Shown here: piece after piece, positions 16,791 to 17,078 of the stretch
How the letters are laid out: every line of letters begins with the position of its first letter
How positions within the stretch are numbered: position 1 is the first letter of the stretch
Origin: an uncultured Azospirillum sp.
Lineage (GTDB): Bacteria; Pseudomonadota; Alphaproteobacteria; RF32; CAG-239
DNA: 64,000 bases
NCBI GenBank assembly: GCA_900538765.1
Contig: UQAB01000007.1
Coordinates: 939-64,938 of the forward strand
Direction: 5' to 3'
The notes under the pieces: model-generated
Database searches by the model: none
Seen by the model: only the letters and a program-made list of their open reading frames with translations
Told to the model about the DNA's origin: nothing
Program-made: the position numbers and the translations under genes

Positions 16791-17078
16791 ACAAAAACCC
16801 CTTGCCAATAATTTCCCCTTATGTTACCCTTAACTTTAGGCGGCAGAGTTTGCCGCTGAGGGCGTCCAAAACCCTTTACAAAAACAGTCGTCAAGCATAA
16901 TTGCGACTTAAAATAAGTATATGCTGATATCTGTCCTGATATGTGCTAGGGGATGGATGTCGGCGAATAAGGCTCTGCCAAATAAGTCGAGCCGTTTGTT
17001 TTTGTACGGTTTTGGAACATCCTCCCGCTCTTTAAAAAGCGGGTTTTTGTTTAACTCTAACAATAAGGATGTTTCAAC
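16791..17078 (+). promoter_or_regulatory. Conserved structured 5' leader RNA, copy 1 (unclassified cis-regulatory RNA candidate)
   Basis: Collinear with 53966-54271. TTGCCA-N17-TACCCT (16802-16830). Hairpin GCGGCA-gagtt-TGCCGC (16840-16856). Long-range helices 16866-16873:17008-17015 and 16878-16886:16997-17005 covary with copy 2. Terminator-like CCCGCT..AGCGGG+T5 (17024-17048). SD AAGGA at 17065. Confidence 0.65.

Follow-up and report, generated by a model that had tools for sequence, protein, structure and literature searches.

A probable bistable attenuator RNA upstream of a multi-copy family of secreted Cys-rich protein genes in an uncultured gut alphaproteobacterium

We analysed a 64,000-nucleotide stretch of DNA (the window; positions 939–64,938 of contig UQAB01000007.1, assembly GCA_900538765.1) from an uncultured Azospirillum sp. 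of the alphaproteobacterial lineage RF32/CAG-239. It contains two paralogous genes for secreted Cys-rich proteins, each preceded by a long structured leader. The leader can adopt two mutually exclusive RNA folds, both of which contain covarying helices; one leaves an intrinsic terminator intact and the other takes up the 5′ half of that terminator. Homologous leaders precede the same gene family and no other. We consider it likely that the leader represents a real, previously unclassified cis-regulatory RNA family, which would act as a bistable attenuator of a secreted, Cys-rich, DUF1566-like protein family.

The leaders, roughly 250 bases long, occupy positions 16838–17078 (copy 1) and 54032–54271 (copy 2), and are the only two in the window by both a 26-nt invariant stretch and a covariance model. 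The region of copy 1 extends from the ileS terminator (16745–16780) to the start codon at 17079, that of copy 2 from about 53985 to the start codon at 54272. An earlier note on this DNA had described the two regions as collinear and had proposed a long-range helix in which eight pairs differ between the copies. Its coordinates and sequences were all correct on re-reading: the leaders align with 87% identity, copy 1 pairs CCAAAACC with GGTTTTGG and ACAAAAACA with TGTTTTTGT, copy 2 pairs (T)AGCAACC with GGTTGCT(A) and GTAAAGATA with TATCTTTAC, and every one of the eight differences is doubly compensated. The hairpins GCGGCA-GAGTT-TGCCGC and GTCGT..CGAC and the terminator stem with its T-run were likewise found, and both leaders fold far better than their shuffles (z = −7.0 for copy 1 and −8.5 for copy 2). 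That note had overlooked hairpins P3 and P4 as well as the alternative fold, and it described neither the number of leaders (25 or more in a genome), nor how hypervariable the helix arms are, nor a frameshift in the copy 1 gene.

A covariance model of 168 positions and 47 pairs was built from 58 full-length leaders; 100 matches were realigned and 80 distinct sequences counted. Standard pairing was kept in 96.6% of cells (80 distinct sequences, 47 modelled pairs), and 24 of the 47 pairs had changed on both sides, amounting to 358 doubly changed cells, a level reached by 0 of 500 shuffles. Sliding the 3′ partners by 1–3 columns as a control lowered pairing to 30–51%. The long-range helix itself was kept in about 95–97% of cells among the 80 distinct homologues, with all four Watson-Crick pair types present at most of its variable positions. 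The proposal that selection acts on RNA structure here was thereby upheld, the helices being maintained across homologues far beyond chance.

Within the complete fold, the long-range helix forms the closing stem (P1a plus P1b) of a four-way junction of P1b, P2, P3 and P4. The order from the 5′ end is P0, the invariant GAGGGCGU, P1a, a CUUU/AC internal loop and P1b, inside which P2, P3 and P4 are linked by conserved joining strands. These strands are 83–100% identical among the leaders, and the domain has the look of a conserved multi-helix aptamer. RNAalifold lengthened P1 outward through GGGCGU:ACAUCC (possible extension P1o). Wobble pairs are conserved at five positions of P3 (e.g. U·G in 72/76 and U·G in 77/77); since the opposite strand, or DNA, would have A·C mismatches in their place, they identify the + strand as the functional one and RNA as the molecule. 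Pairing of the P2 loop (AGCAUA) with UAUGCU at the start of P3 is a possible pseudoknot, for which a compensating change was seen in one small clade only.

The arms of P1 differ sharply from the rest of the leader. P1a comprises 3–4 variable pairs plus AACC/GGUU, and P1b 8–11 hypervariable pairs, giving 14–20 Watson-Crick pairs with a 4 × 2 internal loop. Variable arm positions are 41–47% identical from one leader copy to another yet complementary to their partners, whereas the remaining leader is 83–100% identical. About ten versions of P1a occur, combined with different versions of P1b, and paralogues that are 52–53% identical in protein carry leaders scoring 179–184 bits with new, matched arms. 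Folded one by one, 64 distinct P1 domains contained 14 G·U among 1011 P1 pairs (1.4%). Although the arm sequence is near-random, the energy of the P1 duplex varies little (median −17.3 kcal/mol, standard deviation 1.9, 61 distinct copies); we rejected the idea that P1 is a tuning knob for paralogue-specific thresholds because these energies are so narrowly distributed. Likewise, a search of limited power for a trans-acting antisense 'address' RNA, covering the window and 1.14 Mb, detected no arm outside the leaders.

The second fold emerged from an unbiased mutual-information scan. P1 pairs ranked at the top, and the scan also returned a pair that is impossible in the closed fold, between a G/A after P4 and a C/U before GGUU. 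The pair belongs to another hairpin, GCCGU/ACGGU (Alt-H), which loops out the P1b 3′ arm and takes two pairs each from P4 and P1a; its variable pair was G-C in 36 and A-U in 19 sequences with no exception (40 and 20 in a second count). In a further pairing, Alt-P, UCAGCG of the P3 3′ end can pair with CGCUGA of the P4 3′ strand. All six Alt-P pairs are doubly changed, and pair 111–139 is AU in 25, GC in 16, GU in 14 and unpaired in no sequence. The enclosing antiterminator helix joins the P3 3′ strand (GGGACGGAUGU) to ACAUCCGCCC, i.e. ACAUCC(G)CCC, and overlaps the terminator 5′ half. The P3 3′ strand is common to the antiterminator and Alt-P, and the P4 3′ strand to Alt-P and Alt-H. As in the expression platform of an attenuator, the antiterminator excludes both the terminator and a helix of the upstream domain, P3.

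Overall, the alternative fold is paired in 95.5% of cells and has 8 pairs changed on both sides, which again none of 500 shuffles reached. When the antiterminator alone was forced in RNAfold, Alt-H formed unaided. The predicted energies were −92 and −96.5 kcal/mol for the closed fold and −70 and −78 kcal/mol for the alternative fold, and the gap between the folds is close to the energy of P1. The earlier suggestion of attenuator- or riboswitch-type control gains from these data, as the terminator would compete with an antiterminator whose companion helices covary.

The signals around these folds are arranged as expected for a transcribed leader. The promoter proposed in the earlier note (TTGCCA-N17-TACCCT) failed a simple σ70 scan; what stood was its register, because an A-tract, TTG and TGnTAnnnT are retained at a fixed distance from P0 in 66 distinct upstream regions, and other copies have TATAAT, TAGAAT or TATGCT at the −10 position. 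Transcription of copy 1 would start near 16837–39. The stem at 17024–17043 is followed by TTTTTGTTT, as in an intrinsic terminator, and copy 2 is built in the same way; in other copies the stem varies (CCCAC/GUGGG, UCCUCC/GGAGGA) but stays complementary. The element AACAUCC is complementary to three partners, namely GGGCGU (P1o), GGAUGU of the P3 3′ strand (antiterminator) and GGAUGUU at the ribosome binding site (RBS). A conserved leader peptide was not found among 60 leaders: the open reading frame (ORF) that begins with an AUG at the P3 start occurs in all three frames (15, 20 and 25 of 60), has 5–54 codons and stops early in 51 of 60. An attenuator working by a leader peptide was rejected, as the upstream ORF reaches the start codon in both window copies but lacks conservation among the others.

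Table 1. Positions of the leader elements, the genes they precede and other RNA features in the window
Feature	Position	Strand	Evidence or remark
Copy 1 promoter: −35 TTGCCA 16802–07, 17-nt spacer, extended −10 TGtTACCCT 16822–30	16802–16830	+	below simple-scan threshold
P0, 5′-terminal hairpin GCGGCA-GAGUU-UGCCGC	16840–16856	+	six pairs kept in 58–60/60; G·U and one A-U variant
Closing stem, 5′ side: GAGGGCGU (possible P1o), P1a arm CCAAAACC 16866–73, CUUU, P1b arm ACAAAAACA 16878–86	16858–16886	+	
P2 hairpin GUCGU...GCGAC, conserved loop (U/C)AAGCAUAAUUG	16887–16907	+	99.8% of cells paired; 4/6 pairs changed both sides
J2/3, conserved A/U-rich single strand UUAAAAUAAGUAUAU	16908–16922	+	alignment conservation; any function would be predicted from this
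P3, 14-bp G·U-rich hairpin (16923–36 with 16951–64)	16923–16964	+	98.7% paired
P4 hairpin GGCUC...GAGCC	16971–16993	+	98.6% paired
Closing stem, 3′ side: P1b arm UGUUUUUGU 16997–17005, AC, P1a arm GGUUUUGG 17008–15	16997–17015	+	
AACAUCC	17016–17022	+	100% identity among 58 leaders
Alternative fold: antiterminator (16950–60 with 17017–26) enclosing Alt-P and Alt-H	16950–17026	+	
Alt-P: UCGGC with GUCGA	16960–64 with 16986–90	+	
Alt-H: GCCGU with ACGGU	16991–95 with 17006–10	+	
Intrinsic terminator CCCGC-loop-GCGGG, then UUUUUGUUU	17024–17052	+	terminator scan
RBS AAGGAUGUU and start codon (17079–81), copy 1 gene	17065–17081	+	
Copy 1 gene: signal peptide, Cys-rich N-terminus, DUF1566-like C-terminus	17079–18070	+	frameshifted near 17290–17370
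Copy 2, whole unit	53996–54271	+	covariance-model match 54052–54218, 186.7 bits
Copy 2 promoter	53996–54024	+	
Copy 2 P0	54034–50	+	
Copy 2 P1a	54060–66/54202–08	+	
Copy 2 P1b	54071–79/54191–99	+	
Copy 2 P2	54080–54100	+	
Copy 2 P3	about 54116–54155	+	
Copy 2 P4	54164–87	+	
Copy 2 AACAUCC	54209–15	+	
Copy 2 terminator	54217–44	+	
Copy 2 RBS	54258–64	+	
Copy 2 gene: intact 269-aa secreted Cys-rich protein	54272–55081	+	signal peptide
6S RNA	39245–39400	−	61.3 bits
RNase P RNA class A	59125–59528	+	270.8 bits

We propose the following mode of action. Transcription would begin a few bases before P0, and by default the RNA would fold into the four-way junction closed by P1a and P1b, possibly together with GGGCGU:ACAUCC. 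The closed fold would leave the terminator free to form and the gene OFF; in any transcript that reads through, AACAUCC could mask the RBS at GGAUGUU. In the alternative fold, the P3 3′ strand would pair with ACAUCC(G)CCC and sequester the terminator 5′ half, Alt-P would join the P3 3′ end to the P4 3′ strand, and Alt-H (GCCGU with ACGGU) would loop out the P1b 3′ arm and remove the inner pairs of P1a. Read-through with a free RBS would then turn the gene ON. Most of the energy by which the folds differ comes from P1 (about −17 kcal/mol), so that its closure is the likely decision step. What the sequences show are the helices of both folds and the fact that they exclude each other, the terminator, and the restriction to one gene family; the assignment of the closed fold to OFF and of the alternative fold to ON is inferred, as is any statement about the trigger.

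The genes under this putative control form a large family. In copy 1, comparison with paralogues by tblastn placed the N-terminal 80 codons in frame 0 (17079 to about 17285–17321) and the remainder in frame 2 (~17369–18070), including the DUF1566-like end ...VRPVFAF; the gene is either a pseudogene or affected by a sequencing error. The intact copy 2 protein matches Lcl_C/DUF1566 weakly (19.7 bits, below the cut-off of 34.9) and has 1167 homologues, all from gut-metagenome 'Pseudomonadota bacterium' assemblies, upstream of which the leader was found as well. Median identity among the paralogous proteins is 48.7%. An exact-pattern scan of one genome per species (185,579 representatives) found 25 copies on 24 contigs of a single human-gut Pseudomonadota metagenome-assembled genome (MAG), GCA_030536665.1, plus two chance matches inside an acidobacterial coding sequence. 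In metagenome contigs, the same pattern occurred in 74 stretches, of which about 70 came from human gut. Wherever the gene after a copy could be read, among the 25 in the MAG and the about 70 metagenome stretches, it belonged to the same gene family, and the leader-gene units are scattered singly among housekeeping genes. Copy numbers per genome are lower bounds, as contigs often end inside the leader (L060, L065, L068, L075, L078, L081, L034, L100 and L118 in our numbering of the collected loci), which is expected for a multi-copy repeat in short-read assembly. Coherent metabolic or transport genes across many taxa, the usual company of a riboswitch, were not seen; by exact pattern the leader occurred in one species among these representatives, with only one secreted-protein family downstream. 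Literature searches returned no paper that links DUF1566 with a riboswitch and nothing relevant on gut Alphaproteobacteria, and a plasmid similarity search gave no match.

The leaders are exchanged between loci. Orthologues with 99–100% protein identity from different samples can carry differing leaders (L061/L062, L031/L114, L056/L099, L013/L014): those of L061 and L062 differ at 20 core and 13 arm positions, while L013 and L014 share one leader in which only P1a has been exchanged (4 arm differences, 1 core difference). Such swaps of leaders or of P1a show that leaders recombine between loci. This active concerted evolution would suit the view that the leader has no regulatory function, being a duplicated promoter and untranslated region kept alike by gene conversion with incidental helices. 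We regard that view as scarcely credible. Gene conversion cannot make matched double substitutions 110–130 nt apart in more than 60 distinct versions, nor can it produce covariation in two alternative folds, and the leader core is 83–100% conserved, against 60.5% identity at third codon positions in the coding sequence beside it. The covariation of the main and alternative folds refutes it.

Recombination between loci, the perfect Watson-Crick inverted repeats formed by the P1 arms and the frequent breaks of assemblies at the element would also agree with a DNA-level element, either an invertible or recombinogenic segment (a phase-variable switch) or a mobile repeat of the miniature inverted-repeat transposable element (MITE) type. 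However, a search for the inverted state found none, where the native state occurs 40 times in the metagenome collection scanned and 61 times among all loci collected, and the promoter lies outside the repeats. Hypervariable arms would be unrecognisable to any recombinase or transposase, and the G·U pairs and covariation of P3, Alt-P and Alt-H are sensible only in + strand RNA. A MITE- or Correia-like repeat was rejected as well, with arms 41–47% identical from copy to copy and all copies in front of one gene family. Altogether, we hold a DNA-level element to be very improbable and already largely refuted.

Several leaders depart from the standard form. In L088, L089, L092, L094 and L120, the 5′ and 3′ arms are mismatched and P1 is unable to form. 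L094 equals the L058 locus on both flanks and has foreign 3′ arms only, and L092 joins two loci; the probable cause in these copies is a wrong join made in assembly at the repeat. In other loci an element of roughly 270 bp, bounded by terminal inverted repeats (GACCTAAAATATCCCCTTACAG ... CTGTAAGGGGATATTTTAGGTC), splits the leader directly after GAGCCGUUU, at the P1b 3′ arm (L044 6119–6386; also L026, L030, L038 and upstream of L020; remnants in L003–L012). It sits at the same position in several paralogues, and the 3′ arm beyond it is unmatched to the 5′ arm. In some paralogues the terminator 3′ half and the AAGGAUG RBS are replaced by a strong promoter (TTGATT-N17-TATAAT) and an AGGAG RBS (L044 6400–6520; L003 9890–10000; upstream regions of L016, L019 and L020). 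This replacement module would bypass the leader, which fits the leader being a negative element. A further variant, L110 (8975–9148), has its leader joined within P4 to mid-coding sequence of a family gene (...VEEKAILGECTGYAQNCK...) and is a deletion derivative.

An improbable extension of these observations, in our judgement, is that the P1 arms serve as 'bar codes' in recombinational phase variation of a secreted or surface protein family. Leaders do recombine through their near-identical cores, and an exchange ending between the arms would leave them mismatched; P1 would then contribute −5 to −7 instead of −17 kcal/mol, and the antiterminated fold would switch that paralogue ON, most copies being silent and few expressed. 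If true, this would explain why the arms are diverse amid an otherwise uniform leader. We did not accept the mismatched copies as evidence for recombinational switching, as assembly mis-joins explain their flanks at least as well.

P1 might instead be mainly a site for RNase III, whose cleavage would free the P2–P4 domain as a stable small RNA (sRNA) or alter mRNA stability, with termination a secondary matter. A near-pure Watson-Crick duplex of 16–20 bp with one internal loop and a narrow, sequence-independent stability is what a double-strand-specific enzyme would require, and the Correia elements of Neisseria provide a precedent, giving RNase III-cleaved hairpins in 5′ untranslated regions. 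Cleavage would nevertheless leave the covarying alternative fold and the triple complementarity of AACAUCC unexplained, and we rate this explanation as unlikely.

If the leader is an attenuator, as we prefer, what moves it from one fold to the other? Our best guess is a trans-acting factor that recognises invariant single-stranded or junction elements. One candidate is a small molecule or second messenger: the junction would be an aptamer, and the ligand would stabilise P1 and the closed fold, switching the gene off. Nearly invariant joining strands and loops set among variable, covarying stems, combined with a terminator/antiterminator platform, speak for such a riboswitch. Riboswitches for cyclic di-GMP control adhesins and secreted proteins in other bacteria, so there is a precedent for targets of this kind. 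Restriction to one narrow clade and one paralogous family at 25 or more copies per genome speaks against it, as do the lack of any matching Rfam aptamer, a closed fold already favoured by about 20 kcal/mol without ligand, and a gene function that suggests no ligand. We therefore treat a ligand as a possible but doubtful trigger.

We are equally tentative about an RNA-binding protein that, in the manner of BglG/LicT with its ribonucleic antiterminator (RAT) or of ANTAR proteins, would stabilise the alternative three-way junction and turn the family ON as a regulon. The default-OFF energetics demand stabilisation of the alternative fold, the element is lineage-specific, multi-copy and tied to a single gene family, and the invariant AUAAGGCU and AACAUCC are exposed or rearranged in that fold. 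Conversely, no candidate regulator is linked to the window copies or the other loci examined, no RAT or ANTAR-type dual-hexaloop signature is visible, and the Alt-H loop, being a hypervariable arm, is not a sequence-specific site. What expectation is left beside the ligand and the protein goes to purely kinetic or other control of switching.

The attenuator reading has to be weighed against several observations. The closed fold is predicted to be 18–22 kcal/mol more stable, which means that switching would need help. The antiterminator helix is mostly invariant, with zero pairs changed on both sides, and at two positions 14–18 of 55–60 sequences have a non-standard antiterminator pair that is explained only by a bulged register shift. 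Near absence of G·U from P1 is unusual for constraint on RNA pairing alone; the arm pattern could stem from a need for RNA that is truly double-stranded or from switching by recombination. The narrow distribution and single gene family are unlike those of classical metabolite riboswitches. Finally, the sequences all belong to a single narrow clade and their leaders recombine; counted by cells, independent events therefore look more numerous than they are, and some of the core conservation could be due to gene conversion.

Other regions of the window contain repeats and unassigned coding sequences. At 31811–38102 a repeat unit of at least 0.9 kb (families D1–D3, 67–92% identity) occurs four times and probably represents paralogous genes in tandem. 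The region 18320–22351 has two large ORFs rich in Lys and Glu (532 and 763 aa), with internal repeats of 120 nt and 219/327 nt and no credible Pfam match. A 499-aa Cys-rich ORF on the − strand (11728–13227), with no Pfam match and no leader upstream, may encode a secreted Cys-rich protein of a different family.

If our interpretation holds, the leader would add to the structured regulatory RNAs a new, well-supported example from an uncultured lineage of human-gut Pseudomonadota, and one of the rare cases in which both states of a switch are visible from sequence covariation alone. It would control a very large secreted Cys-rich family, of which each small genome has 25 or more regulated members, and the identity of the trigger would reveal how the bacterium, inside its host, chooses among these proteins. 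Short synthetic constructs would allow direct tests of the system.

The earlier note could name no known family for the leader, and scans against Rfam 15 agree: no family reached its gathering score in either copy, and at these thresholds the only matches in the whole window were RNase P and 6S RNA, which lie elsewhere. Relaxed cut-offs brought no family near its threshold in either copy and gave no T-box match, and T-box or specifier features were absent; a retron is not indicated either, as no reverse transcriptase lies next to any copy. The sole Rfam match common to both copies was sRNA-Xcc1 (RF02221), with 26.3 bits (16951–17034) and 29.2 bits (54143–54227), where the threshold is 53. Published work describes sRNA-Xcc1 as a trans-acting sRNA that lies upstream of symE in Xanthomonas integron cassettes. 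The sub-threshold match is full-length and places the three-way junction of the model on the antiterminator, Alt-P and Alt-H. However, the matching segment is the 3′ part of a longer leader from an unrelated gut bacterium and lacks the integron/symE context. With a score of about half the threshold and the wrong context, we rejected membership in sRNA-Xcc1; the alignment onto the alternative fold could be coincidence or very distant relatedness.

Among repeat elements, Correia (Neisseria) and ERIC sequences resemble the leader in having many copies per genome, a position between promoter and gene, and long-range inverted repeats forming an RNA hairpin that can affect expression. In contrast to their conserved terminal repeats, target-site duplications and unrelated genes, the leader has hypervariable arms, a multi-helix junction core and one gene family. 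The BglG/LicT-RAT and ANTAR systems share default termination and a less stable antiterminator that overlaps the terminator 5′ half and would need stabilising, and the ON fold of the leader likewise has two hairpins beside the terminator; it differs in lacking a RAT sequence, ANTAR hexaloops and a linked regulator, and one of its hairpin loops is hypervariable.

With trp-type attenuators, T-box leaders and OFF-type riboswitches the leader shares three successive competing pairings: P3 (1:2) would guard against the antiterminator (2:3), which would compete with the terminator (3:4). Further likenesses are a structured sensing domain that has a variable P1 as its closing stem, and the additional RBS masking. 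It departs from them in having no Rfam match, no conserved leader peptide and no T-box or specifier, in its 25 or more copies per genome before one secreted family, and in its copy-specific, nearly G·U-free arms and covarying Alt-P and Alt-H. Judged from these sequence comparisons, the leader would work like a terminator/antiterminator attenuator and stands outside every known family.

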